The notes beneath the pieces were generated by a model that saw nothing but the letters and a program-made list of their open reading frames with translations, searched no databases and was not told where the DNA came from. Below are positions 13,201 through 33,159 of a stretch of DNA of 64,000 nucleotides, piece by piece. Both the position numbers and the translations under genes were made by a program. Every line of letters begins with the position of its first letter. Positions within the stretch are counted from its first letter, which is position 1. The DNA is from Candidatus Iainarchaeum sp. (GTDB lineage Archaea > Iainarchaeota > Iainarchaeia > Iainarchaeales > CSSED10-239): NCBI GenBank assembly GCA_037441475.1, contig JBBISB010000001.1, forward strand, positions 136,163 to 200,162, given 5' to 3'.

Positions 13201-15370
13201 TTAATGTTGCTTTAGCCCATTTAAAATTTCCTTCAGTTAAGCTATCTTGATCTTTAAAGCCTTCACTTTCATGTGGAGGGTTTAAGTTATATTGAGTGTA
13301 TTTTTGTATACTATCTAAATATGGAACATCTAGATGTTTAATAAATAAAGAATCATTTTCAATCATTGAAGTTGAACCTGTTCTTAATAAGAAACCAATA
13401 TCTTCAAATCTATCATCTCCAGTTCTGTTTTGAGGAACTAAAAGATTATATCTTACTTGATAATCCATTCCAGCCTTTAAATTATCTTTAACTTCTAAAC
13501 CATCTTTAAAGATACCAATAAACTCCATTCTAGGTTTTGATGTAGAACTGTTCTTTGGATATAAAGTAACTGTTAATTTTTCTTGAGTATCTGCTCTTAA
13601 AGGAACAAATCTTGATTGTGTTTTTCCATAAAAGTCATTTAAGTAATCTGTAGCAACAACATAATAATCATTACCAGCATCAACAAAGAATTCAATTATT
13701 CCTTGTGAGTTTGTAAGATTACTTCTAAGTGGTATTGCAGGAGTAAAGCTGTAGTAACTATATCTATCGTATAAATCTATTCTTGCATCTGGAACTGGCA
13801 TGCCATCTTTATCAACAACAGAGACAAGTAAAGAACCTTCTGAAATACCCATTGGTATTATAATTTCTCCAGAAAGATCTGGAAATTTAACATTAAATTC
13901 AAATGATGAAGATTCTCCAGTGACACTTCCCTTAATAGCTTTAGCTATATATCTTCCTGATGAAATATTTATTGTAGCATTTCCATCATAGTTTGTTACA
14001 AATGGTTTATAGTCTGTTAAAAAGCCAGTCTCTGCATCATATAAAACTACTTTTGCAAACTTAAAGCCTTTTCCATCCCAAGTTGTAACTTTAACTTTTA
14101 ATGAAGCTAAAGTACCAGGAGTTATTAATGTTAATGGTATTACTATAGGTGTTGAAGGCATTTCTGCTTTTGCAGTTACGACTTGTCTTTTTATTAAATA
14201 ACCTTCAGCATCAACAACTACATTATAGTCTTTTATTTCAGGGACAGTGAAAATTACATATCCATTATCATCTGAAATTTTTGTTTCAATAGTATTATTT
14301 GAAATTGTTTTTAAACTTACTTCAGCATCTTTAACAGCACCAACTATTGGAGCTGTTACTCTTACATAGACATAACCTTTAACATCTGTTGTAAGTGTTT
14401 CTGTTTTAGTTGTATTTTCTGATAAATAATATGGTTTTGATAAAGTTCCGTATAAAGGAACTGTTCTTTGATCTGAATAGTTTGCTGTATATTCTCCTTT
14501 AGAAACTTCTTCGATTGTACATGTTCCGGTAGATATAGTTATACATGAACCAGCAGAACCGTAGTTGTTTGTTAAAGTTACCTTAATATTTGATAAGCCT
14601 TCACCTAAGGAGTTTTTAACATTAAAAACAACCTTAAATTTATCTCCTTCAAAATTAAAGTTTGTAGGTATAAGTGCAATTCTTCCTGTTGAGTTTGTAA
14701 TAGGAATATCATACTGTGAAACATACCCTGTAAAAGATATTGAAGAGATTGCTAATCTACATTCAGGGAAAGCATCAACAGTTATTTGACCATTTGAAAA
14801 ATTCATTGGTGCAGGAGCCATGCTTCCATTTAAACATTTAAAAGCAACTGAACCTGATCTATCAATAATTTGATTTGTTTCAGAGTTTACTGCATTAAAG
14901 GAATAAGTAACTGTAAGAGGTGTTACTTTAGTTGGTTCTAAAGCTAAAGGAATTATCTCAAAATTTTCTTTAGATAAAATCTCTGTTGTGAAATTATTAT
15001 AATTCTCTTCAGAAATATCTATTTTATAAAAGGAATTTTTAGGAACTTTTGATTTTTCAGTAAGACCATTTTCTGAAGTTTTAAGATATAGGTTACCTTC
15101 TGTAGTTGAAACTATTAAAGATATATTTTCAAGCAAAGCACCTGTATCTGCATCCATAACCTTAAACTGGATATCAACTCCATCTCTTACTCCACCTGAA
15201 GGTAAAAGTAAAAAGATAAGTCCAGAAATTATAATTAAGATTAAAAGAAGAAATAAAACAAATGAAGGCATAACCTTATCTATCTTATCTGTGATCTTGT
15301 AAAGACCAGTTCTTTCAACAAAACTATAGTATCTATCTTCTAGATTGTAATAAAACTTTTTAAGTCCCAT
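10256..15370 (-). CDS. Giant membrane-anchored surface protein (1704 aa). Conserved N-terminal cytoplasmic motif plus TM anchor, then a beta-rich ectodomain.
   Basis: N-terminus MGLKKFYYNLEDRYYSFVERTGLYKITDKIDKVMPSFVLFLLLILIIISGLIFLLL, with the motif shared with CDS 15411..22376 and 24515..32605. Contains the FCSTEFCFSS..VDVLEDLRYD module also present in CDS 30..7310. SD-like GAGGT upstream of the ATG. Confidence 0.85.
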   Translation of the reverse strand: MGLKKFYYNLEDRYYSFVERTGLYKITDKIDKVMPSFVLFLLLILIIISGLIFLLLPSGGVRDGVDIQFKVMDADTGALLENISLIVSTTEGNLYLKTSENGLTEKSKVPKNSFYKIDISEENYNNFTTEILSKENFEIIPLALEPTKVTPLTVTYSFNAVNSETNQIIDRSGSVAFKCLNGSMAPAPMNFSNGQITVDAFPECRLAISSISFTGYVSQYDIPITNSTGRIALIPTNFNFEGDKFKVVFNVKNSLGEGLSNIKVTLTNNYGSAGSCITISTGTCTIEEVSKGEYTANYSDQRTVPLYGTLSKPYYLSENTTKTETLTTDVKGYVYVRVTAPIVGAVKDAEVSLKTISNNTIETKISDDNGYVIFTVPEIKDYNVVVDAEGYLIKRQVVTAKAEMPSTPIVIPLTLITPGTLASLKVKVTTWDGKGFKFAKVVLYDAETGFLTDYKPFVTNYDGNATINISSGRYIAKAIKGSVTGESSSFEFNVKFPDLSGEIIIPMGISEGSLLVSVVDKDGMPVPDARIDLYDRYSYYSFTPAIPLRSNLTNSQGIIEFFVDAGNDYYVVATDYLNDFYGKTQSRFVPLRADTQEKLTVTLYPKNSSTSKPRMEFIGIFKDGLEVKDNLKAGMDYQVRYNLLVPQNRTGDDRFEDIGFLLRTGSTSMIENDSLFIKHLDVPYLDSIQKYTQYNLNPPHESEGFKDQDSLTEGNFKWAKATLKEWPIDYTGSIGFYNNYEIEATISVKDTAVFGEELKIYNLGFGLNQDEEYETFSQYLGSNDKIEYYDVYDHITYGVGSELFCSTEFCFSSTMVDVLEDLRYDVTDSFGAKPNKEYKYTFTLINNSNETRYLSSRFILENIDEGLDIKTIKIIKPNGEIFTQNNPSSYTFDISITQLLSKQKVTGEIIFTPKLKGTRNLSIKFISDQRVRFINQLFIDVASDKTLIVTADPQVIPSGKNFNLLVKQKDSKSSVPVKDATVTIKDRFKDTIKGPLAIPNSTGELNVSNIPAQGPNDVIYVYVSAPEYETTLIELRATDRLFNIIPRNLAYSLNIFNEKQKTENFTINNIFPIDLTIEELVVKGNGLEVVDLARINNSLLESVGIVIKGYDTVSSLPDNKDASKVIPLTISLNPRAETIRELQNLSSTLYIVLSSGDNKWQTELPIKVNIGFDGMIDNSNCLTISNGLWKDVSINKPVQTNFIIANTCSIKGTNMPLSNGLEARVLFESNPQGKFIVSIDNRSVELTHGNYRNLLDTFDRDRSLPVVLKYEPIGRMKGTVKGKVQFRSINNTGNGSQEIVSEIAFEIDVTNLKDCVVFSKNTLNVGQMGDSFTIENKACSTSMVYRLSCDDCIGLIVDPRGDIEVSSTGTSQAVTVSSMGATPGAYVLNVYGAMKESRQDEDLIKRVKVYVRPTDYCLDLERYEFDLYRSETSESTGLSMSAIAYDVTNIINLCYSQEITGQFTVKENAKWKMAFVAFLREGIYTTTISAFLQGKIFALAEDKANKLLKSVEGNNDSDVITAATALKAAIAGGDKKKIKEATTALEAAVKGTSTITTLGSATTPGTGTATTTETEDSSVTNNYINLDSLNGTSPNLTNYGSGIEMYNKLAALEGIQKTNKITVVNFICNYETCSPYAENNLSPGDFIGYTSPSSSGAMGYFAIYLGEKAGSKKILRISGSTQQYLVQNLSEFNVSGYIPIQIIK

Positions 15371-21400: not shown

Positions 21401-22376
21401 TTTGAAGAGCTGAATCAACAATTGTTATTTGTATATTTTCAAGTTCTGTTATTGGTCTGTATCTATCATCATTATCATATATAACAACTCTGTATGTTCC
21501 TATTGTTATGTTTTCAAAAAGAACAATACCGTTTGTGTTTGTAGTTGCTTCTCTTACAACTTGACTTTGCATATTAACAATTGAAACACTAACATTTGAA
21601 ATTGGTGTTTTTAAATCATTATCTAAAACTTTAATCGATGCATTACCTGTTTTCTTTTCTGCAAAGCTTAACTCAACATCTCCTGATAAACCATCTTCGT
21701 TTACTGCAACAGAACCAACTGCATTAACTGTGGATGATTCTATTGAAACTTGTAAGTAACCACAATCAGCAGGTATGTCTGTTAAGGTTAAAGAACCGTC
21801 GTTTGTTAAAAGATTATTTTTTCTATAATTACTGTTATTTGAACAAGTGATTGTTGAAACTGTTAAAGGAGAATTATATAGTTCGTTATTTGATTTAAAA
21901 TATATTGTTTTTGAAACTGTACTAACTGTTAATTTAAGATAAACTGGATAGTTATTCTTTTTACTAAAGTTAATAGTTAAAGGAGTCTCTATTTGGTATT
22001 TAGAACTTTTAATACCTAAAGGCATTTCCTCTTTCTTAATACCAGTAACCTCTGCTATTCCTAAAGAGTTTGTTACAAGAAGTTTTGGAGAGTTGTTAAA
22101 TAATATTTCTAAACTCTCATTTGAGATTGGTTTATTTTGGGAGTCTACAAAAGTTAAAGAATAGGTCTGATCAGTAACAACTGAAGATCCAAATAATAAG
22201 AATGCTAAAAATACTATTAATAAAAGTATTATAAGATTGAATAATAGGAAGGTTGGAATTCCGTTCTTTTCTAAAGGATCTACAATTTTATATAAATTGA
22301 TTCCCTTTTTTTCTAATCTATCAAGAAATGCAAAGTATTTCTCTTCTTGCCTGTAGTAAAAAGATTTTAGACCCAT
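15411..22376 (-). CDS. Giant membrane-anchored surface protein (2321 aa) with the same N-terminal anchor module. Contains a ~130-aa N/Q/Y/G-rich low-complexity (prion-like) segment.
   Basis: N-terminus MGLKSFYYRQEEKYFAFLDRLEKKGINLYKIVDPLEKNGIPTFLLFNLIILLLIVFLAFLLF. Internal low-complexity region CNWFSGFNNYNQYYGGNNFSSGYNNPYFGGNNF..QGYRNPNYN..NMNCP at roughly nt 18160-18545. A YCDQEQFYDYL module related to YCDATQ of the paralogs. Confidence 0.85.
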   Translation of the reverse strand: MGLKSFYYRQEEKYFAFLDRLEKKGINLYKIVDPLEKNGIPTFLLFNLIILLLIVFLAFLLFGSSVVTDQTYSLTFVDSQNKPISNESLEILFNNSPKLLVTNSLGIAEVTGIKKEEMPLGIKSSKYQIETPLTINFSKKNNYPVYLKLTVSTVSKTIYFKSNNELYNSPLTVSTITCSNNSNYRKNNLLTNDGSLTLTDIPADCGYLQVSIESSTVNAVGSVAVNEDGLSGDVELSFAEKKTGNASIKVLDNDLKTPISNVSVSIVNMQSQVVREATTNTNGIVLFENITIGTYRVVIYDNDDRYRPITELENIQITIVDSALQNKDVLLTKAYIGQLKFKVIDSKTKEAIENVSVSLYKTSTLVKTLISNKEGLVNFGVEENITYKVVFNNPNYILKTENNLRISDSVKQISLNPITNENLRSLVITVQDNLLKPVDFATIRLWDAEENIILQTITADVYGKAVLTNLDISRTYKLDSSKGQFTSEFTNPFRIVEQQINEQVIKMTIGEGTFNLTLKTEFGDFYQGNVYVYDTLNDSILADKTTSTNAEGFTLIKIRADKQVYFVIDNFDSKFITSRYEINANEIVNLSFTLPSRISQTSGIEFLGFYNALGEKINSVTPGMQVTARYSLNVTKKFSKVVAHLRIGNAPNPVCGTTTYTVLEDALFIKEVRYAKSETIGSTSYTPCSGQTTDLSNKTLRNAKWFNLTINNPLEGSYLIEADVVVLESAFINQALNYRAEFYEGTSIVRSPVDTSYTSGNTKQNLYAQTKQAMLFTGSQNQCSSLLCYAFTITSNQTNLSRNIIDRYNAQINNDYRLSFNLNVLEGKIAPNSTMVITTGSSVVLKEYMINSVTGNLLRGNEFSNIEIGSLTSNDILSGDIDFKVIDDVSDVITISIVSNGQEVFSRNIFIDVKEAKEMYVEMVPRKIIPFIANDLMIAVTDHSNKPVNGANVNILLNNNPLVVSLTNSQGLYGYVLPATDLGDVVRIIVTKNEYRMKDISLVVDDQLITAIPKEITLTLDSSVNVREVYNFSLFNEAYVPLSIVSVSQSLDNQYVKLALDIENYTINGNSQNDITLTATLTEAGMNLYTQQTIKNEVAIRIRSEEMNKTWLVTIPVTVRVVLGNALDSLDCLKVLPSSASIRTEADKTVTFDFTVENKCTSRQIAIDLTSINAMADWGNESEAGVLSIVVSGKEYILEDLKEVSILSSLLKNAKSTLQLKFKAYKIASNIKTPTIYFTSKKGNINGVDEVKARLPLEVIVNNYAECIEMPKQPVPALACNWFSGFNNYNQYYGGNNFSSGYNNPYFGGNNFNTPYNMNNQFNPHNTYQAGQGYFTQQQGYRNPNYNLVGQFGYAGPQASTVNPYNFPTAQYQNTFGNYNSYNFMSGYPQDNYGNMGMSNNMNCPVRPFYIKNNCLEGVTIKLDASYGVTITSDAEFSLEPGESKETTILGGESMGTFNIPVNVKPSLVNKANYRLVGNVPVSVTLPISFMPSKCIQVTPQKLDFSNILDPKYQMVKVMNTCFADGYRLVEVSYLDLMDLDFDGVSFLTVGEMQGKIQPIKVDTFTELTTNKPIEYWEIALRRNPEIKNTVSAKEYLNKYSQYSLAAGIVSSFRKILIDVEDTVNLKFVLQVGLQPPHGQSSLIYNNVGMQLTDNFQWLILDNKDNWDLIKQFTDENVTDEDMMFVDTSVKLTYTLDSENKAVMIHVPENQLTADKFKRMDQETEVTRCFFGYVKDFPLNGIKDTSYINDNGTYYLKDTYNPLKVSIRFLKPTRHIFKLCFTRPVDSFNNVLAVNSKITIYDLFKEGQTSNINKVFELWASSENQKAKLESHISIGVSTAVSDRSIDGSVTPTADGETIATGALKCLAPDLSSNLGQTGLEAYNDYGFDKILFEYDSSKITATSCDNMYCDQEQFYDYLQKKVVGLDSLKDTSKYVKLGDIYFEKDWQTIKRSDIKVDFCGDGDVCEDFNRQGKETLQSYIDEAVKLLNSIPQELREITIIKTKGLEYNPSGDYLAVVTIGDYQYTTAEYFLNNLHNKFSNDNQRAEVYANMEVYFGSSPQVFTSSLKKFGQTNDPLNVNILNTYNSSTVVKTYEFTYERAMNVSKPGVYLIHASQGVGKNVVIKIRSLVRALPDEYNKNILFSMPINPRYTMSKSNTLYNAPFLSGIYNVTDYSSTDTIQDGYIFSFKDMANYTFIDSRPFYFNKPYNFKIVQTNNNTDLKVLNNMNRLFLLKDKTSLQVALYANPQINNGDTKNVTAFTKTVVSNNFMIYNLVMNNVEPKLTYNTMNDVFKEIPTGNVCFNISGNNPELLLWHNPDKFK

Positions 22377-22580: not shown

Positions 22581-24257
22581 TTATTGAGCAACACACCCTG
22601 CTGTCCCTGGTAACCCTGCTTCGTAACTTTTACATCTCCATCCTGATGTCAGAGGATTATTTAAAATTACTTGGTTTTGAAAATATCCTGGGGTTCCAAA
22701 GCTAAATGTTTGAGAAGGATTAAAAAAAGAATAACTTGCATAATCATCTTCTAATTGCACATAGATATTTTTATAATCTTCTGCAAGGATATATCTTTCA
22801 TCCTGGTCTTCAAATTTAAATAAAATATTTATTTTTTCTATTTTGCTACACTTTAAATTAAAATTTTTATTATCTTGAGAAATATTAGTAGGGTCTCTTA
22901 AAATAAAAATATTATTATCATTATTTAAAGAAAGTCCAATATTTGAAGCTTTATTATATTGTAATGGATTAAAAATTACAGGTGTTATTGATGAGTCCCC
23001 TTGAATACCTCCAGCAGAAGGTTCTGATAAAACCTCTTTTGTGACTTTTGAAACATCAATTACACTTACATTACAGATATTTAAACCATTTTGTGAAACA
23101 ACAGAGTTTCTACACACCCCAATACCATCATTTACTGATTTAAGGTTATTTCCTGCATAGATTTGTACTGGTGTTCTTGCAGAAACATTATTTTTAATAG
23201 TTGTCTTAACAAGATCTTCAAAAACAGGTTTTAAATTTTCTGATGTTTGAAGAGAATAACTATTATTTCCTGAAAGATTAATATTTGTACCAACTACAGT
23301 ATACCCTCCGCCGTTGTTTGCCTTAACTCCTGAAACTGATGTTGGTTTTGTACAAACATCCGAAAAATAATTTTTATTAGTAGTAATAAAAAGATCTTCT
23401 CTTAACCCACAACTATCAATATCACAAACCCCAAGCTTTGCACTGTTTAAAGTGTAATGGATGTATGGGTTAAAGAAACCTTGAGAGGTTGAAGAACGAT
23501 TTAATATTTCACTTTGATCTTTTTTTTCGAGCTCAGCATCAAGAGCAAAGTTTCTAACAGTCCTCATAGCTTGAAACCCTCTCCAAGGAATATATATCTT
23601 ATACTCTCTTCTTGCAAAAACTGGTCTTTGAATAACCTCATCATTTTGATTTCTTTTAACAACAATCATTGGAAGTTTTTCATAGTCCTCTGCAGATAAG
23701 TTTCTAGTGTCTATTGTAAAATATAAAGTTCCTAAACAATTTACACTATTCTGCTCACAATCAACAACTTTTAACTTATTATCTCCTGCTGCAACAAAAG
23801 AAGCTTTAATAATTCTAGATAATTCTATTTTATCATAATCAGGAACTTGAATACCATACCCTATAGGTGGGTTTGTATATAATAAACTACTTATAACGTT
23901 TTGTGCAAAGAAATTTTCAAATTGATTATCAAAAAAAATATCATCTGCATAATATTTTACAAAACTATCCCAATCAAGCATCACTTGTTCTCTTTGAATT
24001 TTAATTTGATTATCAGGGTTACTTCTAAACTTTATCCATTGTTCTCTAAAAGAAACAACAAAGTTATTAAAAGCATCAGCTCTTGAAATATCTGCAATAG
24101 TAATTAGATCAGAAGTTCTTGATTGATCATCAATTAAGGATAAATAGTTTTCTTCGGTCTGTACCATGTTATATACAAAAACAATTGTTATGGAAAGTAG
24201 CATTAAAGAGATTAATGCTGTAAAAAGATTAAATCCTTTTTTGTTTTTTATAAACAT
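22581..24257 (-). CDS. Prepilin-like protein (558 aa) with a class III (type IV pilin-type) signal peptide, embedded in the giant-protein cluster.
   Basis: N-terminus MFIKNKKG|FNLFTALISLMLLSITIVFVYNMV: short basic leader, Gly, then a ~22-aa hydrophobic helix, matching the archaeal PibD/FlaK and bacterial prepilin peptidase substrate pattern. The rest is a large Cys-containing globular region. ATG start. Flanked by 204-nt and 257-nt intergenic spacers. Confidence 0.6.
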   Translation of the reverse strand: MFIKNKKGFNLFTALISLMLLSITIVFVYNMVQTEENYLSLIDDQSRTSDLITIADISRADAFNNFVVSFREQWIKFRSNPDNQIKIQREQVMLDWDSFVKYYADDIFFDNQFENFFAQNVISSLLYTNPPIGYGIQVPDYDKIELSRIIKASFVAAGDNKLKVVDCEQNSVNCLGTLYFTIDTRNLSAEDYEKLPMIVVKRNQNDEVIQRPVFARREYKIYIPWRGFQAMRTVRNFALDAELEKKDQSEILNRSSTSQGFFNPYIHYTLNSAKLGVCDIDSCGLREDLFITTNKNYFSDVCTKPTSVSGVKANNGGGYTVVGTNINLSGNNSYSLQTSENLKPVFEDLVKTTIKNNVSARTPVQIYAGNNLKSVNDGIGVCRNSVVSQNGLNICNVSVIDVSKVTKEVLSEPSAGGIQGDSSITPVIFNPLQYNKASNIGLSLNNDNNIFILRDPTNISQDNKNFNLKCSKIEKINILFKFEDQDERYILAEDYKNIYVQLEDDYASYSFFNPSQTFSFGTPGYFQNQVILNNPLTSGWRCKSYEAGLPGTAGCVAQ

Positions 24258-24514: not shown

Positions 24515-27500
24515 TTAATTTGCTTTAACAGGGTCAATACATTTGTCAACTCTTAAAACATCTGTTAAAGCTATTATTGAAGGAGCTTGAGAGTTGTAAG
24601 GTCTTACATCAACAATATATCTTGACTTATACTCTTGTGAACTTTCAGGAGCAAGATAATCTACCTCTGTTATATAGAAGATATTCTTTTCAAAGACAAT
24701 AGGTGTTTTAATCTCAATTGAGCTATTAAGACCAGTCATACCTTTATCTCTTAAACCATTAATACCAACTATGTTACCCGCAATTCCACAACCAAGTCCT
24801 CTTAAAAATCCACCAGCACCTCTAACCCACTTTAGTTTACTTGAAGCAGTTGGTACTTTTGAACCGCTTATCTTTGTAAAGTCATCTATAACTTCGTCAG
24901 GAACTAAATAATTTCCAGCACCATCAGGAGCTAAACTACTTATCTTAATACTCATTGCTTCTAATGAAGCTTTTTGTGCTTTTGCATCAGCTAGTTTAGT
25001 TTTTAATGAAGCTAAGTCTGATGATGCTTTTCTAGATGCTCTGTCCACAGCAGTAATTTTATTAGGGTCTGATTTTACTTTTTTAGGATTAAAAGAAGAT
25101 CTTGCATTATTTTTTTCAAGATCAGTAATCTTTCTTTCTAAAACTTTAATTGAGTCATCTGCTTCTTTTATTAAACCTTTCTTAGAATCACCTATTGTGT
25201 CTAAAAGATTATTTAGTGAAGCGTCATCAATTACATTAACTGTACTTGTAGTTGTTGTTCCAGGTCCAGCTCCTGCTGCAACACTTCTGTCATAACCTTG
25301 TAACTTAGATAAATAGCCATTATTTTTGGTTAGACTATTAACTGCATCAACTTGACTTAAATGTCCTGATGGATAAACTCCAGAATGAGGAAATTGACTT
25401 CTTGAAACAACTTGTAATAAATCATCTAATTGAGCACTAGTTATTTTTGAATAATTAATTTTTGCGTTTGCACCACTTCCTGATATTACATCTGGATTAT
25501 TCATCAAAGCCTCAATTACATTATCTGCTATTCCAGTAGTATTAGTAAAGGATGTCGGAACTTGATTAAAATATATTCCTGCTGATTGAACATTATTTAC
25601 TGTAACCATTTGAGGGGATGAAAGATAATTATTTGAAATAACTTTAATATAATCATCTAAAAAATTTATTGCCTTTTCAGAAGGTGCTCTAGGTCTTACT
25701 AAATTAGGGGTTGTTCCAGGTGTTGTAGTTGTTACTGTTTGAGATACAAAAGGATCATCACCTAAACTTATTGTTGCCTCTCCAAGATTTAATGGAGTTG
25801 CAGCAGCAGAAGATCCTGCCTTAAAAGAACCTGCCATTACAGATCCAACAATTCCTGTAAACCACTCTTCAACCTCTCCAAACAAAGGACCTAAAAACTT
25901 AAGTTCAGGTTCATTAAATAACCATCCTAAAAACTTATCAATAAGCCATCCTAAACCGCCCTCTCCACCTGTTAAAGCAGATGCAAAGATTTGAAGAGCA
26001 GGAAGACCACATGAAAAGCCTAAACAATCAATTCCAATACCTGCAATAGATACTGGCATTAAAACTGCTGACAAACCATAACAACCAGCACAAGTTGCAG
26101 AACATCTTAAGAAATACTGTCCAGCATTGTTTAAGCCTTTATTTATTTTCGAGGTTGTCTTTTGTTCAGGGTCCTTTAAATCACAACCAAGTTGTTCATA
26201 GTTATAAAAGAAATCTCCATTATACTTTCCAGAGTCCATAACCTTTTGTAAAGTAGAACACATCTCTTCTTTTTCAGCAGCATTATACTCTTTCTTCCAA
26301 TCAACTAAGGCAGTGATGTTAAGAGGAAGATTTTTATCTTCATCTTTTTTATTATTCTCTAAAAGAATATTATTATAAACTTCTAAAAGATATTCAGAAG
26401 GAGTTATAGCACATGAAGCTAAAGTAACCTCTGCAATTGCACTCCTGTTACCAATAGTACCATCAGAAGAATAAATACTTGTAGCTGTAACAGTTGCTTT
26501 TTGACCAACCAAAGTATTCATTTCAGAGGGTGTTAATGGAGTTACACACATAAAAAAATTATTATCTTGGTTTTGAAGAACAGAAAGGCTAAGAGGCTCT
26601 TGAACACCATCATCTTTATTTTTCTTAAAACCAATAGTGCCACCAGGAACTTGTGTTGATGAAATTTTTAAAGTCTCATCCATTGATGATTTTATTTTCA
26701 TTAAAGTACAAGAAGATGTTTCTTGTAAAGTTAAAGAAACTTCCTTTTCAGTAAAAGCTAAATCTCCAGCCTTAACTAAATCAAGGATAAGCATATATGT
26801 TTGATCTTTAGAAACACAAACCTTTGCACTATAATCGTTCTTTGTTATCATTGAGCTTATAACATTTACAAACTCTCTTCTTACCTTGTCAGGAGTTAAG
26901 CCATCTGCTGTTTGATATTGACTATTAAGAAGAACATTTATTTGTTCAGGGTTTGCTTTTTCATAAACTTGTTTATCATTAAAAGATATTTTTGCAAGAG
27001 CATTTTTATTTTCAGAAATAACACCTGAAGAAACATTTAAGGTACTGTTTCTTGTAGATAAAACATCTCTATTGTAAACATATCTTAAATCTACTTGATC
27101 TGTCTTAAACTTACCTACACCCTTGATTAAGTCTTTTGAAATATTTTCATCACCAGTAAACAAAGTAAGCCATGTTCCTTGTCTATTGTTTTTATCTAAA
27201 GTTAAATCCCATGGAAGGAAGTTTAAATAATTCATTATCTTTTTATCACAGTGAGAAGTTTTTTCATACTTTAAAACATTTATGAAATAATATGCTCTCT
27301 CTGGATAAATATAATCAGGAGAAGCTGCTATAAAACCATCAAGCTCAATTGTGTACTTACCACAACCACTCAATTGATTTGAAACAAACACTTTATTTCC
27401 ACCAGCATAAACACCTAAAGAAGTATTCCCTGCACTATTAAATGGATTTGTTTCAACAAAGTAATTTTTAAAACCATAATTTGATTTTGAAAGAATAGCT

Positions 27501-30500
27501 CTTACAAGCTCAGTAGAGACTACATCATTTTGCATATAGAAAGTAAACTCAATTGGCTCAACATCTCCACCAAGCTCTGATATCTTACAATACCCTCTTG
27601 CAGCATCAACTAGAGGACATCCTGTGTTCATTGTCTTTGCTTGTGCTTGAGAAGACATTTGTTTTATTTGGTTTTGAAGTTCACTTACCTTCTTTAAAAT
27701 ATACTCTGTTGAAGAAACAGCATCACAGTAACCTGATTCTTCAGAACATGCACCAATTGAGATTAAAGGTCTACTTAAGGTTGTTGTTTCTTTTAAGTCT
27801 TCACAAACTGGAAGAGAAGAATTTATTGTAACAATATTATCTTTAGCTTGATCTTCAAAGACATCTTTGATATTTATAGAAACTGTAAAGTCCTCTGAAG
27901 TTACAGGATTACCAGAGTTAAGTAATCTTCCTATTATTACCATTGGCATTTTAGGAGAGCCACCTAAAGAGCTTGCTGTAAGCTCTAAGCTATAGGTTGC
28001 TGATTGATTAGGGTATATTAAATTATTACCAGAGGTTGGAATTATTCTAAAAGGATTAGCACCAAAAGTCTCTGTATAACCATCTTGTTTTTTATCAATA
28101 CCAACAACAGAAACTGGTTCTGCACAGTAGTTTGTTAAGGTAATGTTTCTTGCTCTCTTTTCTCCAACCTTTAAAGTATAATCTAAATTTTTATTACTTA
28201 CCTTCAAACAGTTAGGAGAGGAGATTGTAAAAATAATCTGGGTGGTTGCTGTTATTGGGTTATTAATACCAGCAGCTTTTCCAGTAACTAAAATAAATGC
28301 ATTATCAGCAGTTGATTTATTTATATTAACTGTAAACTGTAAATCAATAGGTATTGATGCACCAGGCTCTAAAACAGATACCTCTCTAGGATATTCTTTA
28401 ATACCTATGTTTGAAGATACCATCTTAGGATATTGACTTATCTGTATATCTGTTATTGGAACTGTTCCTATATTTTTAATCATGAACCTTGTTGCATTAA
28501 CAGCAGATTGCTGAGGATGAAGTTGTGAGATTGGAACCTGTATTAATGTAGGCATTATCCATAAAGCCTTACTTAGATCTAAAAGATCAACATTTAAAGT
28601 TGATGGGGAAACAGAGTATAAGCTGTTATGCCATAGGATATTATAAGTAAATTTTCTTTGTTGTTTAAGGTTTGATTTATTTTTAATAATAACATCATAA
28701 ACCTTCTCTTCTCCTGGAAGAACAGTTACATGAGCAAGGGAAAGCTCTAAACCATTGTTTGAAGCTGAGGAGGTTAACACTGATTGTGGAGTAAAGGTTA
28801 TAGCTTGTGAACAGTTGTTTTTAATAATAAAGAAAGTAGTATTTTCTGTACTCTCTGTTGTTGAATCTACTTTTGAAGAATAGTAGGTATAATAGTTAGG
28901 ATCTGTATAGTTTACAGTATTCCTTGAAGAAGAATAATTTTGAGTATAGTTTTGAGATGCTAAATAATCTGAGTAATTGGAGTAGGTTTGAGAAGGTGCA
29001 AGTAAAAGATTACTTCTTTGTGTATTTCCAGCATAATTGTAGTTTGTGAAAGGAGTGTTATACACATTTGGTGCAGTATACTTAAGGTTTAAACCTACAA
29101 AGGAGTTAACTGCATTTGGAGTTATCTCAATACAGTCGCTAACCAAAAGACCTTTGTTTATCCTAATAGGGACAATCTTTGTAATCTCTCTAGGACCAAT
29201 GGTTGCATAGATAGGAACATTTGCAAATGCTGTTTCAAACAATATATCTTTTGATACAGTGATTACAACCTCGTAGTTTTGAGAGGAATTTTTATTAATA
29301 AAAGGATTACCTCTAATATCTATAAAGATTTTATCAGATCCATCAACCCAGACTGGTTCTCCAAACCTGATGTTAGTTGCTTGGTAAACACCGTTGTTTT
29401 GTAAAGTAAATCTTGAAGAGGAGGTTATCTGGTCAAGACCAAGATTGATTAATACCTCAGGAGGTGTTAATGTTAATAAAGAATCATCAACTATGAAAAT
29501 TTGTTTTTTATAAGGAACATAACCATAACTTTCAACTAAGACGTTTACAGAGGAGACATTAAATTTATTTTCAATAGTATAGTTTCCATTTCTACCATTA
29601 CTTCCCTCTCCCTTAACTGAGGAAATAAAGGCTCCTCTATCATCATAGAAAGAGATGAATGCATTTTCAATAGGTTTTAAAGAAACTGAATCAATAACCT
29701 CTATATTAAACTTAGAACCGTATGAAACAAAGATATCAGGTGTAAAAATAACCTTCATTTCTTTTTTATCAAAAACATTAAAGCTTAGTCTATCATTAAA
29801 GACTTGAGAACCTAAGATAGCATCTGTTCCCTTAAGATCAATGTATGCTGTTCCTATCTCCTTTGAAATAAATGTTAAATAAATTTTCTTTAAACTGTTT
29901 TGGTTTATTGAAAGATTATCCCTTACTGCTTCAAAGTTTGAAGAATCATAAGTTGTGCTTTGGTTATTTAGAGTATCTGTAAAAAGATTAAAGGAGATTA
30001 AAGGAAAGCTCTTTGAAGTTTCAGCTAAAAGATTTAACTGTGAGTTTTTTAAAGAATAGATGCTTGTTTCAAGAGAGTAGTTTTCTCCTTTAATAGCATA
30101 AAAGTCTTCAATATTAAACTCATTATCTTTTGAGTCAATTATCTTATAAGAAACACAAACATCACCAGAACAATTTAAAGGAACATTGAAAAGATCAATT
30201 GAAACTTCTTTTGTTTGTGCATAAAGAGCTCCCTTAAGATTATTTGAATAGTTTTGTTTTAAAGTTGTATCAATAGGATCTCTATAGTAAAGTTTATTTT
30301 CTTCAATCAATGCCCTGTACTTAAAGATTAGTTTTGTAACAGACATATCAACTGCATTAACCTTAACCTTTATTTGTTTGTTTCCTAAAGGAACATCTGA
30401 AGCCCATTTAAGCTCAAGCCATTTATTTATTATCTGTGAAGAACCTTCATTAAGAGAGTCAATACCTTGCATTCCCGGGGCAGGCTCACTATTATAAGTT

Positions 30501-32605
30501 GTCCCATATTTAAAGTTAGTTATGTCCATTGCAGAGAAACCAGTAATACCGTAACTCATTAGTTCTGAATCTGTTTGAGTATCATCACCAGCTCTGATAT
30601 GCACTTCTCCTTTATATGTTTTTTCAGGGAAAAGAACATCAAAAACTAAATAGTATTCTTTGTCTGTTGTTAAGTAGTTTGTTTTAATACCTTTAGAGTC
30701 AACCACACCTGCAAACTCAATTACAGGGTAATCAGAGTAGTTAACTTGTTTGTTTAAATCAAGTCTTAAGTAACCACCATTATCTGCTTGGTCTGCTGAA
30801 AAGTTAATAACAGATTTATTTCCATTCTCGTCTGTATATTCAGCAATTAAGTCCTTGTAACCTTCTGTGTTAAATATTATTTCTTCACCTAAAGAAATAT
30901 TTCCATCAAAAAGAACAGTTCCATCTTTTGTTCTTATTAAAAGATTTCCTGAAGTTATTTTCATTCCGTTTTCATCATAAAAATCAAGTTTTATCATTTT
31001 TGAAGCATTATCAACAACAAAGATGATTTTATTTTCTCTTAAAGGATTTATTTTTATATTTTCAAAAACTTCTGTTTCTCCAACCATGGCATAAACCCTG
31101 TAGTCCTTGTTTACTCTTAAAGGTAAAGCAAAAGAACCTGTTATGTCTGTTTGAAGAGAGGTGTTGTAAGGAACTTCTACTTCTGTTTCTGGATTGAAGT
31201 TTATAAGTTCATAGATTTTTAAAAAAGCTTTTGTTACTGGAAGATTTTTTTCATCAACAACAAAGATATTAAGTATTGCACTATTTGAAACATCTATTCT
31301 TTCTAAGATAAACTCAGCTTTTGTTGTTTGTCGTAAATCTACTGTTTGATTTTCACAAAAATAATCTACTTTACATGCTGTTATTAAGATTGGTTTTTCA
31401 GAGGTTATTCCTTTAAAGCTTATTTGACCTAAAGCATCTGTTTTTCCAGAATCAATAACTGTGTTATCTTTATTATATAATGTTATTAAAACATCCTCTA
31501 AAGAAAAGAAATTTGTTTTTGATTTAGTTGAAATATCAATAAAGTTTCCACCAAGCTCTAAGACAACAATAAATGTTTCTTCAGAGTTGATTATTCTTAA
31601 GGAAATGTTTTCATCACTTATAGCTGTTCTGTAACCTTCCTTTTTAACCCTGTAAGAGATTGTTTCTCCAGTGTCTATGTATGCTAAGGCCTTACCATCT
31701 ATTGTTTTTTGATTTGCAACCTCTTCTCCACCTAAATTAAAGATTAAAACTTCTGCATTATCAATTACTTTTTGAGAAGTGTCTAAGACAACAAAGGTAA
31801 CTATGCTTTTTCCTTCAAAGGAAAGTGAAGAGATATCCATCTCAATAACTTTCTCTTGTTCTTTTGAAGTTATTCTATAGTTTGTTTCTCTATAGTCTTC
31901 ATAACCATCTGCCTTTATTAAAATTTCTAAATCTTTGTTTAAAGGTACTTCTAAGGTTATAAAATGATTTTGATATTGATTTACAATTCCTTCTTTACTT
32001 TCTTGTCTATTGTTAATAGAGAAGTTAACTTTTGCAGAGCCTGCAGGAATTGTTTTTCTATTTTCTCTATCTATTAGTTTAATTTTTAAAACTCCATACT
32101 CTATTGATTCTGTAAAAACAATTGAGATGTTTTGTTTCTTCTCTGTAATGGTTATAACTTTTGTAAAGTCAGGGTGTCCTGCTTTTGTTGAATAAAAGGT
32201 ATATGATTCTCCTAACTTAAGTTTTATTTTTTTAGAAAAACCATTTTCAATAGTTCCTTTAAAAACATCTTTATCTTTGCTTGATATTTTTAAGTAAACA
32301 TCAGATAATGAGTTTCCTTGATAATCAGTAACTGAAAAAGTCAAGGTTGATTGGTTTGAGAAAGAAAAGAAAATTAAAAAGATTATTATGAAAAGTAATA
32401 ATAGTAAAATAGATGCAACAATTGCAAAGGCAGGTAAACCTTTTTCTTCTAAGTAATTATTAAAATCGTTTAGAGGGATTCCTTTTTCTGAAAGCCAGTT
32501 TGAGGTGCTTGCATATTTATCTTCAAGATAATTATAGACCCTTGAGAAAATATTTTGTGAACTGCTTTCTTCTGATGACGCCATATTTTTCTTTTCTTTA
32601 ACCAT
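24515..32605 (-). CDS. Giant membrane-anchored surface protein (2696 aa) and first gene of the cluster. The C-terminal ~600 aa combine glycine-zipper-like hydrophobic segments with a coiled coil.
   Basis: N-terminus ..FSRVYNYLEDKYASTSNWLSEKGIPLNDFNNYLEEKGLPAFAIVASILLLLLFIIIFLIFF (conserved motif plus TM). Ectodomain of carboxypeptidase-regulatory-like beta repeats and Y/N-rich stretches. C-terminal region has CSATCAGCYGLSAVLMPVSIAGIGIDCLGFSCGLPALQIFASALTGGEGGLGWLIDKFLGWLF, a heptad-like stretch IKEADDSIKVLERKITDLEKNN..LASLKTKLADAKAQKASLEAM, and WVRGAGGFLRGLGCGIAGNIVGINGL. Confidence 0.85.
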   Translation of the reverse strand: MVKEKKNMASSEESSSQNIFSRVYNYLEDKYASTSNWLSEKGIPLNDFNNYLEEKGLPAFAIVASILLLLLFIIIFLIFFSFSNQSTLTFSVTDYQGNSLSDVYLKISSKDKDVFKGTIENGFSKKIKLKLGESYTFYSTKAGHPDFTKVITITEKKQNISIVFTESIEYGVLKIKLIDRENRKTIPAGSAKVNFSINNRQESKEGIVNQYQNHFITLEVPLNKDLEILIKADGYEDYRETNYRITSKEQEKVIEMDISSLSFEGKSIVTFVVLDTSQKVIDNAEVLIFNLGGEEVANQKTIDGKALAYIDTGETISYRVKKEGYRTAISDENISLRIINSEETFIVVLELGGNFIDISTKSKTNFFSLEDVLITLYNKDNTVIDSGKTDALGQISFKGITSEKPILITACKVDYFCENQTVDLRQTTKAEFILERIDVSNSAILNIFVVDEKNLPVTKAFLKIYELINFNPETEVEVPYNTSLQTDITGSFALPLRVNKDYRVYAMVGETEVFENIKINPLRENKIIFVVDNASKMIKLDFYDENGMKITSGNLLIRTKDGTVLFDGNISLGEEIIFNTEGYKDLIAEYTDENGNKSVINFSADQADNGGYLRLDLNKQVNYSDYPVIEFAGVVDSKGIKTNYLTTDKEYYLVFDVLFPEKTYKGEVHIRAGDDTQTDSELMSYGITGFSAMDITNFKYGTTYNSEPAPGMQGIDSLNEGSSQIINKWLELKWASDVPLGNKQIKVKVNAVDMSVTKLIFKYRALIEENKLYYRDPIDTTLKQNYSNNLKGALYAQTKEVSIDLFNVPLNCSGDVCVSYKIIDSKDNEFNIEDFYAIKGENYSLETSIYSLKNSQLNLLAETSKSFPLISFNLFTDTLNNQSTTYDSSNFEAVRDNLSINQNSLKKIYLTFISKEIGTAYIDLKGTDAILGSQVFNDRLSFNVFDKKEMKVIFTPDIFVSYGSKFNIEVIDSVSLKPIENAFISFYDDRGAFISSVKGEGSNGRNGNYTIENKFNVSSVNVLVESYGYVPYKKQIFIVDDSLLTLTPPEVLINLGLDQITSSSRFTLQNNGVYQATNIRFGEPVWVDGSDKIFIDIRGNPFINKNSSQNYEVVITVSKDILFETAFANVPIYATIGPREITKIVPIRINKGLLVSDCIEITPNAVNSFVGLNLKYTAPNVYNTPFTNYNYAGNTQRSNLLLAPSQTYSNYSDYLASQNYTQNYSSSRNTVNYTDPNYYTYYSSKVDSTTESTENTTFFIIKNNCSQAITFTPQSVLTSSASNNGLELSLAHVTVLPGEEKVYDVIIKNKSNLKQQRKFTYNILWHNSLYSVSPSTLNVDLLDLSKALWIMPTLIQVPISQLHPQQSAVNATRFMIKNIGTVPITDIQISQYPKMVSSNIGIKEYPREVSVLEPGASIPIDLQFTVNINKSTADNAFILVTGKAAGINNPITATTQIIFTISSPNCLKVSNKNLDYTLKVGEKRARNITLTNYCAEPVSVVGIDKKQDGYTETFGANPFRIIPTSGNNLIYPNQSATYSLELTASSLGGSPKMPMVIIGRLLNSGNPVTSEDFTVSINIKDVFEDQAKDNIVTINSSLPVCEDLKETTTLSRPLISIGACSEESGYCDAVSSTEYILKKVSELQNQIKQMSSQAQAKTMNTGCPLVDAARGYCKISELGGDVEPIEFTFYMQNDVVSTELVRAILSKSNYGFKNYFVETNPFNSAGNTSLGVYAGGNKVFVSNQLSGCGKYTIELDGFIAASPDYIYPERAYYFINVLKYEKTSHCDKKIMNYLNFLPWDLTLDKNNRQGTWLTLFTGDENISKDLIKGVGKFKTDQVDLRYVYNRDVLSTRNSTLNVSSGVISENKNALAKISFNDKQVYEKANPEQINVLLNSQYQTADGLTPDKVRREFVNVISSMITKNDYSAKVCVSKDQTYMLILDLVKAGDLAFTEKEVSLTLQETSSCTLMKIKSSMDETLKISSTQVPGGTIGFKKNKDDGVQEPLSLSVLQNQDNNFFMCVTPLTPSEMNTLVGQKATVTATSIYSSDGTIGNRSAIAEVTLASCAITPSEYLLEVYNNILLENNKKDEDKNLPLNITALVDWKKEYNAAEKEEMCSTLQKVMDSGKYNGDFFYNYEQLGCDLKDPEQKTTSKINKGLNNAGQYFLRCSATCAGCYGLSAVLMPVSIAGIGIDCLGFSCGLPALQIFASALTGGEGGLGWLIDKFLGWLFNEPELKFLGPLFGEVEEWFTGIVGSVMAGSFKAGSSAAATPLNLGEATISLGDDPFVSQTVTTTTPGTTPNLVRPRAPSEKAINFLDDYIKVISNNYLSSPQMVTVNNVQSAGIYFNQVPTSFTNTTGIADNVIEALMNNPDVISGSGANAKINYSKITSAQLDDLLQVVSRSQFPHSGVYPSGHLSQVDAVNSLTKNNGYLSKLQGYDRSVAAGAGPGTTTTSTVNVIDDASLNNLLDTIGDSKKGLIKEADDSIKVLERKITDLEKNNARSSFNPKKVKSDPNKITAVDRASRKASSDLASLKTKLADAKAQKASLEAMSIKISSLAPDGAGNYLVPDEVIDDFTKISGSKVPTASSKLKWVRGAGGFLRGLGCGIAGNIVGINGLRDKGMTGLNSSIEIKTPIVFEKNIFYITEVDYLAPESSQEYKSRYIVDVRPYNSQAPSIIALTDVLRVDKCIDPVKAN

Positions 32606-32823: not shown

Positions 32824-33159
32824 TTATTTAGAGTTTGAAACTCTAATAATTGCAACTATTGAAACAATTAATGCTGCTGGTGCTACAAAGTAAACAAGGT
32901 TTACTAAGATCCCTCTTAAGACATCTCCCACAACAGGAATTGCATTAATTGAGTTACTGGTTGCTATAAATGTTATTGAGGCTATTAAGAAAAGAGAGAT
33001 ATTTCTATCTTCAATGTTTAAAAGACCAATAACAAGACCTAATACTATTAAAACAGTTGAAAGCCATACAGGGTGACTTATACCATAGATAAGTCCAAAA
33101 ATAATTGAAAGTAAGATACCACCAAGGAAAGCAAAAGCTCCTATTTTTTCAAGTTTCAT
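32824..33159 (-). CDS. Small integral membrane protein (111 aa, 3-4 TM)
   Basis: Hydrophobic throughout (FAFLGGILLSIIFGLIYG.., VLIVLGLVIGLL.., AALIVSIVAIIRV). No recognisable family. Confidence 0.5.
   Translation of the reverse strand: MKLEKIGAFAFLGGILLSIIFGLIYGISHPVWLSTVLIVLGLVIGLLNIEDRNISLFLIASITFIATSNSINAIPVVGDVLRGILVNLVYFVAPAALIVSIVAIIRVSNSK

Follow-up and report, generated by a model that had tools for sequence, protein, structure and literature searches.

An orphan C-terminal module, tentatively a cell-contact element, in a giant surface protein of Iainarchaeota

The functionally nearest described systems to the proteins considered here are, by analogy, the giant SPEARE proteins of Nanohaloarchaeota, for which host attachment and possibly pore formation have been proposed without proof (PMC6642349). 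Giant surface proteins of other DPANN archaea were likewise proposed to serve host attachment or invasion (PMC6642349), and cell-wall degradation and a 'vampiristic' lifestyle have been proposed for DPANN as well (PMC9723730). Of interest here is the way in which DPANN archaea, Iainarchaeota among them, make contact with other cells and obtain resources from them. Here we describe the C-terminal module of a giant protein of 2,696 amino acids (aa) that is encoded on a stretch of 64,000 nucleotides (positions 136,163 to 200,162 of contig JBBISB010000001.1, assembly GCA_037441475.1; from here on the window, with a G+C content of about 29%). The DNA stems from Candidatus Iainarchaeum sp., a genus placed in Iainarchaeota, kingdom Nanobdellati (DPANN). 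We delimit an operon of giant surface proteins that is conserved and belongs to the core genome, and within it an orphan module with precise bounds.

SPEARE proteins and the giants of Iainarchaeota are alike in being mostly extracytoplasmic, in having one transmembrane helix and in taking up several percent of a small genome, and one SPEARE variant is anchored at its N-terminus (PMC6642349), as is the Iainarchaeota giant. In contrast to SPEARE proteins, no serine protease, laminin-G, BC-toxin-like or restriction-enzyme domain was detected in the giant, while SPEARE proteins in turn comprise no counterpart of its C-terminal module; the giants of Iainarchaeota belong to a different family. The module is a new orphan combination of domains, and the protein that bears it, a giant surface protein of DPANN type, is of a known kind. 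As an initial annotation of this DNA had stated, positions 24515-26290 correspond to the C-terminal module of the 2,696-aa protein; we find that they cover aa 2106-2696 plus stop codon, and all four motifs quoted in the annotation were located (CSATCAGC at aa 2168, FTGIVGSV at aa 2249, IKEADDSIK at aa 2479 and WVRGAGGF at aa 2593). The protein and its parts are as follows, with helices taken from AlphaFold2 (AF2) models:

24515 to 32605, minus strand: complete open reading frame (ORF) of the giant protein, 2,696 aa, stop codon at 24515-24517.
32357 to 32605, minus strand: N-terminal motif and anchor, aa 1-83 (from hydropathy and family alignment).
25961 to 26290, minus strand: Unit 1, helical cysteine-rich domain, aa 2106-2215 (from family alignments, AF2 and cysteine conservation).
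25970 to 26116, minus strand: apolar helical hairpin, aa 2164-2212 (from Hessa sums and family-mean hydrophobicity).
25760 to 25960, minus strand: Unit 2, aa 2216-2282, aromatic-rich amphipathic helices (GWLIDKFLGWLF, LKFLGPLFGEVEEWF) and a Gly/Ala/Ser segment, FTGIVGSVMAGSFKAGSSAAATPL.
25226 to 25759, minus strand: hypervariable linker rich in Thr, Pro and Gly, aa 2283-2460, with small structured islands.
24932 to 25225, minus strand: Unit 3, coiled-coil-like helical hairpin, aa 2461-2558 (AF2 helices at module residues 356-400 and 409-453).
24830 to 24931, minus strand: connector with the semi-conserved motif (V)PD(E/D)V(I)DDF, aa 2559-2592 (from family alignment).
24740 to 24829, minus strand: first part of Unit 4, Gly-rich helix, aa 2593-2622, consensus GFxRGxGCGILGNxxG, with C2606, G2610 and G2614 invariant.
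24518 to 24739, minus strand: second part of Unit 4, small beta tail of three predicted strands, aa 2623-2696, with F2638, Y2644 and D2687 invariant and C2689 near-invariant.

In the ORF list of the window, no competing ORF of at least 80 aa overlaps the module region, and no tandem DNA repeats were found in it. The roughly 2,000 aa in front of the module had been taken for a beta-rich ectodomain. For the 2,696-aa protein itself this view rests on sub-threshold Pfam beta-sandwich matches, whereas its paralogous neighbours of 2,321, 1,704 and 2,426 aa contain beta-sandwich domains above threshold (CarboxypepD_reg, SdrD_B, SpaA and Big_1).

An unindexed HMMER search with the 591-aa module retrieved 12 proteins among 1.84 billion cluster representatives, seven of them with an E-value <1e-10. 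The hits stem from Iainarchaeota MAGs, and those with a name are annotated as 'hypothetical protein' of Candidatus ainarchaeum sp. In a set of 185,579 genomes, each representing a species, the module has a single relative, found on an STF1_257 contig ('Candidatus (I)ainarchaeum sp.'). The family (proteins P0001-P0012 and locus L001) is marked by the N-terminal motif with its anchor, the C-terminal module, a set of 28 cysteines and synteny. Full-length members comprise 2,362-2,855 aa, most of them with N-terminal motif, transmembrane anchor and module, and the full-length orthologues of the 2,696-aa giant in loci L001 and L003 are 56-60% identical to it. At the C-terminus, the family signature consists of a Cx3Cx2C...DCGxFxCGxP hairpin, a helical hairpin, a GCxxxGxxxG helix and an F..N..Y...D.C tail. 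Two short hits, P0002 and P0004, were considered as stand-alone module genes and turned out to be fragments instead (a split gene and a 1.6-kb contig). The public record of the partial member P0010 (MFA7132582.1), a 5.8-kb contig, names a 'Bacteroidales bacterium' as its source, which is probably an error of binning.

When the protein and the 12 family modules were scanned against Pfam, NCBIfam and PHROGs, only sub-threshold coiled-coil or compositional matches emerged. The module of the window has no Pfam match at E <=0.1, and the 25 most frequent of 42 Pfam families that the 12 members match at E <=1 include no toxin or fusogen family. Sequence and profile searches of the PDB with the module gave generic coiled coils only, and a match of the Gly-rich segment to Lactococcin G-beta (E 0.27) was rejected as compositional. 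As for phage relatives, tblastn against 50,697 phage records found no match, and PHROGs gave only matches with E >=0.038. A word-indexed search with the module, a 13-sequence alignment and a 106-aa tail alignment missed members in the same collection and is thus no evidence of absence; low-complexity words may have saturated the first two queries (8,000 candidates), and the third, with 464 candidates, still missed them. A metagenome scan with a pattern of the hairpin recovered only the contigs of P0005 and P0007, and one with a pattern of the tail gave no match, the full alignment being too divergent for a pattern.

Several lines of evidence bear on where the module is located. The cytoplasmic N-terminal motif of the giant (NIFSRxYNxLExKY...W(L)xEKGIPLN...EEKGLPAF) is followed by the anchor (aa ~57-83), the sole segment of transmembrane grade in the protein, with a mean Kyte-Doolittle (KD) hydropathy of 3.48 and a Hessa sum of -7.5 kcal/mol. 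These Hessa-type sums were taken over 19-mers, with position terms absent. Besides the anchor, KD peaks >1.4 occur only at aa 2170-2212. With seven Lys and Arg residues before the helix compared to two in the 30 residues after it, we infer an N-in signal-anchor. Furthermore, all 28 cysteines of the giant are conserved in five to seven of the seven other full-length members, at a mean of 0.97 compared to 0.19-0.66 for the other residue types. Their number is even, most form closely spaced pairs, and they include the five cysteines of the hairpin as well as C2606 and C2689. Such an even count of near-invariant, paired cysteines argues for a disulfide-bonded extracytoplasmic protein. In one homologue, P0007 (locus L002, 4643-13788, contig Ga0172374_1000806), an NlpC/P60 domain follows directly after the module (PF00877, E 2e-11, with a score of 44 bits where the cut-off is 23). 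The 28 cysteines, the Thr/Pro linkers, the NlpC/P60 domain of P0007 and the N-in anchor together make it likely that the module forms the far end of an extracellular protein. It is thus most likely extracytoplasmic and membrane-distal, in agreement with the earlier proposal of a position at the distal end of a surface anchor. The density of N-glycosylation sequons was tried as a topology marker and found not informative.

The P0007 gene is followed by two small ORFs (81 and 191 aa) that have no Pfam match and are absent from the window and the other loci. P0011 possesses an extra C-terminal extension of ~240 aa as well. By eye it resembled a CHAP- or NlpC-like domain (QCADF...SHIVLYVG), a likeness that found no support from Pfam, the PDB or BLAST against the P0007 extension.

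Unit 1 of the module comprises seven family-conserved cysteines (2116, 2141, 2168, 2172, 2175, 2194 and 2199) within the consensus YN..D.E..C...K....FF......CD...K..N..YF..C...C..C-(apolar ~20)-I..DCG.F.CGxP. Two AF2 models were made, both as monomer predictions, and their mean predicted local distance difference test (pLDDT) scores of 48.5 and 58.8 denote low confidence. Five helices are predicted around the hairpin; those of Unit 1 span aa 2109-2124, 2147-2182 and 2187-2212, with block-mean pLDDT values of 43-74 for both sets and values <50 for residues 2177-2191. The Cys-bracketed hydrophobic stretch of the initial annotation is indeed present from aa 2168 onwards, is conserved, and is predicted to be a helical hairpin with five conserved cysteines. 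Its helix 1 carries Cx3Cx2C, while helix 2 opens with D-C-x-G-F-x-C-G-x-P. Given their spacing (i, i+4 and i+7 on helix 1, facing the Cx4C at the start of helix 2), these five cysteines would probably staple the hairpin through disulfides; a metal or Fe-S site at Cx3Cx2C in place of disulfides is possible. A radical SAM domain was considered for Cx3Cx2C (26083-26104, minus strand, aa 2168-2175), the spacing of which is usual in radical SAM enzymes and invariant in the family, and was rejected, since no domain match was obtained and the context is apolar, helical and extracytoplasmic. A thioester (Cys...Gln), suggested by a 'GQ' in the hairpin loop of most relatives, was dismissed too, as the protein of the window and its closest orthologue lack that loop.

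The halves of the hairpin reach Hessa sums of +3.9 and +4.9 kcal/mol and KD means of 1.66 and 1.45. Together with the Gly-rich segment (+6.4) and the FTGIVG segment (+7.7) of the module, the hairpin stands out from the ectodomain, where the best of ~1,980 windows scores +8.1. All the same, the apolar segments of the module fall 11-15 kcal/mol short of the genuine transmembrane helix of the protein. In every member that covers the hairpin region, the hairpin is the greasiest segment apart from the anchor (+2 to +7 compared to -6 to -8), and both the halves of the Cys-bracketed stretch and the Gly-rich segment recur at the same aligned positions in relatives at 20-40% identity. With a family-mean hydrophobicity <H> of 0.43 and a hydrophobic moment (muH) of 0.07-0.08, the hairpin is apolar on all faces and non-amphipathic, and of the five windows in the entire protein that score best on the Wimley-White interfacial scale, three fall within aa 2164-2230. 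Comparators on the Hessa scale gave +2.2 for the HIV-1 fusion peptide, +3.2 for the VacA N-terminus, +8.9 for the Ebola fusion loop and +12.0 for the influenza fusion peptide. The hydrophobicity of the hairpin therefore appears to fit the range of membrane-inserting, non-constitutive peptides and not that of a constitutive transmembrane helix. Alpha-hairpinins (CxxxC...CxxxC), thionins and saposin-like proteins are comparable as extracellular helix-loop-helix structures in which cysteines at i/i+4(/i+7) of one helix face those of the other, and which may touch lipid without being transmembrane proteins. However, the cysteine pattern of the module, Cx3Cx2C...(18-26)...Cx4C, is non-canonical for them, the module has no Pfam or PDB match, and the helices of NK-lysin are much less apolar than those of the hairpin.

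Unit 2, next to the hairpin, is predicted to be helical by AF2 with pLDDT <50, and its conservation within the family is weak. Its aromatic helices reach muH values of 0.28-0.46. The second amphipathic Gly/Ala segment that had been noted here does exist at aa 2249, but with a muH of 0.20 for the FTGIVG segment its amphipathicity is weak, and it is poorly conserved. The following linker is 18-38% identical to that of the closest orthologue, compared to ~60% for the whole protein, and varies in length and content within the family. Its pLDDT is mostly <50, with islands of 50-70 at about aa 2316-2325 and 2356-2405.

Our favoured reading, to which we assign a probability of roughly 0.38, is that of a distal contact module, in which the apolar hairpin, stapled by its cysteines, attaches to another cell through a lipid surface or a hydrophobic receptor, while the helical hairpin and the terminal cap dock or oligomerise. 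The N-terminal signal-anchor would hold the giant in the archaeon's own membrane and the ectodomain of ~2,000 residues would project the C-terminus outward. The tip would be a compact helical domain, the core of which is an apolar, Cys-stapled helix-loop-helix with amphipathic helices at its flanks. Such a hairpin would be too weakly hydrophobic to be halted within the Sec translocon, yet on a par in hydrophobicity with viral fusion peptides or the VacA N-terminus, and it might act as a wedge into a lipid surface or a hydrophobic receptor on the partner cell. The Thr/Pro-rich linker would provide reach, and the helical hairpin of ~45+45 aa with the Gly-helix/beta cap would constitute a docking or oligomerising end structure, to which a cell-wall hydrolase may be attached in some relatives, as the NlpC/P60 domain observed in one homologue (P0007) hints. 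Membrane engagement is plausible for the hairpin only. The anatomy of the module, its conservation, its distribution over the family, the synteny, the ranking by hydrophobicity, the invariance of the cysteines and the NlpC/P60 fusion of one homologue are observed, whereas the extracytoplasmic location, the stapling by disulfides and any contact with a partner membrane are inferred. What the initial annotation observed is confirmed, and its interpretation is partly supported.

A number of points weigh against this reading. Neither sequence nor fold searches gave any homology link of the module to membranes, and the low pLDDT of both models leaves the hairpin unplaced between exposure and burial. 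Invariant cysteines and many small residues would suit a tightly packed structural mini-domain equally well, and the Hessa scale was applied free of position terms. A verified enzyme fusion is found in a single homologue, and the module holds no excess of N-glycosylation sequons (3 found compared to 5.7 +/- 2.2 expected). Moreover, we know of no host for Iainarchaeota. AF2 does place the segments quoted in the initial annotation in helices and not in buried beta-strands, albeit at low pLDDT, and no match to a non-membrane-active fold was obtained with Pfam, the PDB or Foldseek; both outcomes reflect low resolving power and are no positive support. If the hairpin is membrane-active, it would represent a new class of contact or penetration element, and if it is not, the module would still be a useful marker of the surface apparatus. 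A fragment of ~185 aa (2106-2290) is concrete enough for a lipid-binding study, while the epitope-rich tail could serve to locate the tip in cells.

The giant is part of a six-gene run on the minus strand that encodes proteins of 2,696, 558, 2,321, 1,704, 964 and 2,426 aa with gaps of 17-257 bp. The gaps among the genes of the 2,321-, 1,704-, 964- and 2,426-aa proteins measure 17-40 bp, those around the 558-aa and 2,696-aa genes 204-257 bp. Relevant features of this neighbourhood are:

30 to 22376, minus strand: four more giant or large surface-protein genes (2,321, 1,704, 964 and 2,426 aa) of the same operon.
32357-32605, 22200-22376, 15200-15370 and 7150-7310, minus strand: copies of the N-terminal motif in four giants (from sequence comparison).
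22581 to 24257, minus strand: gene of a 558-aa pilin-like partner protein, directly downstream of the giant, with orthologues after the giant in loci L001, L002, L003 and L005.
32824 to 33159, minus strand: gene of a small multi-pass membrane protein of 111 aa, directly upstream of the giant, a partner gene in most loci.

The N-terminal motif of ~50 aa (..F(S/Y)..Y..LE.KY....KGI(P/N)L....) and one transmembrane helix are common to the giants of 2,696, 2,321, 1,704 and 2,426 aa, which suggests that they have a cytoplasmic partner or a dedicated insertion route in common. The 2,321-, 1,704- and 2,426-aa proteins have N-terminal regions of ~1,000-1,400 aa in common. According to sequence comparison within the window, the C-terminal module is not present in the four other large proteins of the operon. 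In the 964-aa protein a Sec-type signal peptide replaces the N-terminal anchor motif, and this protein (7328-10222, minus strand) has a C-terminal region of ~640 aa in common with the 2,426-aa protein (30-7310, minus strand), at 24% identity and E 5e-36.

Both partner proteins lack a family match in Pfam, NCBIfam and PHROGs. The 558-aa protein starts with (K/R)GFNLFTA(M/L)(I/V)(S/A)L.L, with conservative substitutions only among the four orthologues examined, and this N-terminus is reminiscent of class III (type IV pilin-like) signal peptides. In loci L007 and L008 the corresponding position is occupied by genes of 605 and 592 aa. The 111-aa protein has about four apolar helices, is 92% identical in L001 and 63% identical in L002, and is far better conserved than the giant itself. 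Its position is taken by a 112-aa gene in L008 and is empty in L007. It could be a membrane partner of the surface apparatus. The gene order [winged helix-turn-helix protein, 111-aa membrane protein] - giant - [558-605 aa] - giant - giant repeats in five or six other contigs, the orthologous order of further giants is seen in L003, L002, L007 and L008, and genes of a metallo-beta-lactamase-fold RNase, an M48 peptidase and NurA flank the operon even in one distant member. The same gene order with the same housekeeping flanks points to a vertically inherited core locus and not to a mobile island.

These observations bear on the first alternative, which we regard as possible but doubtful: an assembly module that does its work free of lipid. 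As protein-protein interfaces, the hairpin of apolar helices, its amphipathic neighbours and the coiled-coil-like hairpin would bundle copies of the giant or join it to the other giants of the operon or to the pilin-like protein. The product would be a large surface structure (a sheath, a fibre or a coat resembling a surface layer) with its hydrophobic faces buried in the complex. An operon that is conserved and tightly spaced, with partner genes kept across loci, would be expected on such grounds, and its nature as a core chromosomal feature, not a variable weapon island, fits as well. Invariant cysteines and helices rich in small residues are consistent with close helix packing. However, the other giants of the window lack a similar or evidently complementary segment, two uniformly apolar helices are unusual at a soluble interface, and the NlpC/P60 fusion of P0007 points to a foreign cell wall.

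The remaining units of the module also have to be weighed here. For Unit 3, a heptad stalk of ~90 aa had been claimed, which the models do not bear out: AF2 predicts two helices of ~45 aa (aa 2461-2505 and 2514-2558) that are split by a loop, NPKKVKSDPN (NPKKVKxDPNK), which is strongly conserved in close relatives. Heptad occupancy is moderate, with 7/13 hydrophobic a/d positions in helix A and 9/12 in helix B, and the periodicity of helix A is 3.6 residues. Based on the models, Unit 3 is more likely a helical hairpin of roughly 6-7 nm than an extended stalk. Profile matches of the module in the PDB are coiled-coil chains only (SMC3 with E 3e-4, ClpB and M protein; E 3e-4 to 0.02). That this region matches nothing other than structural coiled coils is in line with an assembly function.

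In Unit 4, the predicted strands reach pLDDT values of 70-80 and the Gly helix 47-56. A GxxxG-rich segment had been described here as a membrane-insertion element. The segment itself is present, and both G2599/2603/2607 (GxxxGxxxG) and G2610xxxG2614 are conserved in close relatives. Its proposed role in insertion is not borne out: in the divergent members P0008 and P0009 the Gly helix reads KIGCHILGQYEGQKAF, is polar, and keeps only GCxxxGxxxG, which again favours assembly. Similarly, Gly zippers ((G/A/S)xxxGxxxG, for example in the VacA N-terminus) resemble G2599xxxG2603xxxG2607 in the predicted helix of close relatives, whereas the module has no match to a Gly-zipper family at E <=0.1 and contains Arg, Asn and Cys inside the motif. 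Because of these conserved Arg, Asn and Cys residues, its polar nature in divergent members and its continuity with the conserved beta tail, the Gly helix looks like part of a terminal cap. The GxxxG segment thus probably belongs to a cap domain and not to an insertion element, and a C2606/C2689 pair would link the Gly helix with the last part of the beta tail. An archaeal sorting signal (PGF-CTERM/archaeosortase) was not found: the C-terminus (...RVDKCIDPVKAN) lacks a terminal apolar helix, and NCBIfam gave no match.

An unlikely explanation is a second anchor in the archaeon's own membrane. Here aa 2164-2212 would enter the membrane as a hairpin, either transmembrane or re-entrant, whose two ends stay outside, so that the 2,000-aa ectodomain is held as a loop at either end and the final ~480 aa face outward. 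Two consecutive apolar helices of ~20 residues with a short loop have the right shape for this, sums go down to +2.1 to +3.7 in some members, and marginally hydrophobic hairpins can insert cooperatively. The neighbouring, highly conserved multi-pass membrane protein would be a potential partner. Yet in the Hessa sums both helices trail the real anchor by 11-12 kcal/mol each, and the five invariant cysteines of the hairpin fit disulfides outside the membrane better than lipid-embedded helices. In addition, helix 2 contains a conserved Pro and an Asp that is invariant in closer members (Gly in P0008 and P0009).

Readings that go beyond contact are less convincing. We consider it quite improbable that the module is a lineage-specific envelope-penetration device, in which the stapled, fusion-loop-like hairpin and the helical region, at the tip of an anchored filament of ~2,700 aa, insert into, locally open or fuse with the host membrane, aided by a hydrolase in some lineages. 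If it were true, archaea would possess a fusogen or translocon that has no relation to fusexins, known toxins or the fusion proteins of viruses. A likeness to toxin translocation domains and fusogens, as first suggested for this module, was not substantiated, for no significant similarity in sequence or fold was found. Class I fusion glycoproteins such as Ebola GP2 are alike in having a Cys-bracketed, moderately hydrophobic Gly/Ala-rich segment followed by two helices split by a loop. However, the module shows no sequence or fold similarity to them, possesses no C-terminal transmembrane anchor and ends in a hydrophilic beta tail; its linker of ~170 aa is variable, and its helices comprise only ~45 aa each with moderate heptads. 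Alpha-helical pore-forming toxins (ClyA/YaxAB/XaxAB/AhlC, colicin) likewise contain long helical hairpins together with one built of apolar helices. However, Foldseek gave only E >=0.25 and TM-scores <=0.16 on the query, a low-confidence model, Pfam gave no match, and the module is fused to an anchored ectodomain of 2,000 aa and not secreted.

The strongest version, a pore-forming or membrane-fusing device in the manner of a class I fusion protein or an alpha-helical pore-forming toxin that opens the host membrane or makes a cytoplasmic bridge, we consider very improbable, for although the Cys-bracketed apolar segment, helix, loop and helix recall the order of fusion peptide, first heptad repeat, loop and second heptad repeat, although the hydrophobicity lies within the fusion-peptide range, one homologue has an NlpC/P60 domain at its tip, and YaxA, XaxA, AhlC and IpaB are among the top Foldseek rows (E 0.6-1.3, not significant), any long helical hairpin would retrieve those chains of alpha-pore-formers, significant toxin or fusogen similarity is missing, a hypervariable linker separates the hairpin from the helices, the sole anchor sits 2,000 residues away at the N-terminus, oligomerisation is not evidenced, the Gly segment is not a conserved apolar element, and the module is conserved and not diversifying, unlike most weapons.

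Two further classes of large proteins invite comparison. Phage tape-measure proteins with fusogenic and muralytic ends (for example T5 Pb2) and CdiA/Rhs filaments share their plan with the giants: a long extended chain, apolar segments and a coiled coil, to which P0007 adds a distal cell-wall hydrolase. The giant has no similarity to phage proteins. In contrast to polymorphic toxins, the C-terminal module is conserved in all members, with an extra domain of ~240 aa in P0007 and P0011 only, and the downstream gene is a 558-605-aa protein of conserved position, with no consistent immunity-type gene.

Besides the operon, the window encodes NurA, an XPD-type helicase, a HerA-like ATPase with an intein, phosphoenolpyruvate synthase and LemA; NurA, XPD and the HerA-like ATPase, together with the orthologue of the giant in a 'Candidatus (I)ainarchaeum' MAG, speak for an archaeal source of the DNA. 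The gene of the HerA-like ATPase (51521-54043, plus strand) does not adjoin the NurA gene (36915-37988), and its intein comprises a LAGLIDADG homing endonuclease domain (Intein_splicing, E 1e-32). Within the operon, the tail of the 1,704-aa protein was considered a degenerate NlpC/P60 domain, based on a by-eye likeness to the second half of that domain without the catalytic His, for which Pfam gives no support. The C-terminus of the same protein (10256-10700, minus strand) reads ...PGDFIGYTSPSSSGAMGYFAIYLGEKAG...; ahead of it lie an apolar helix, a region of helices and a linker rich in Thr and Gly, an arrangement also seen in the C-terminal module of the 2,696-aa protein.

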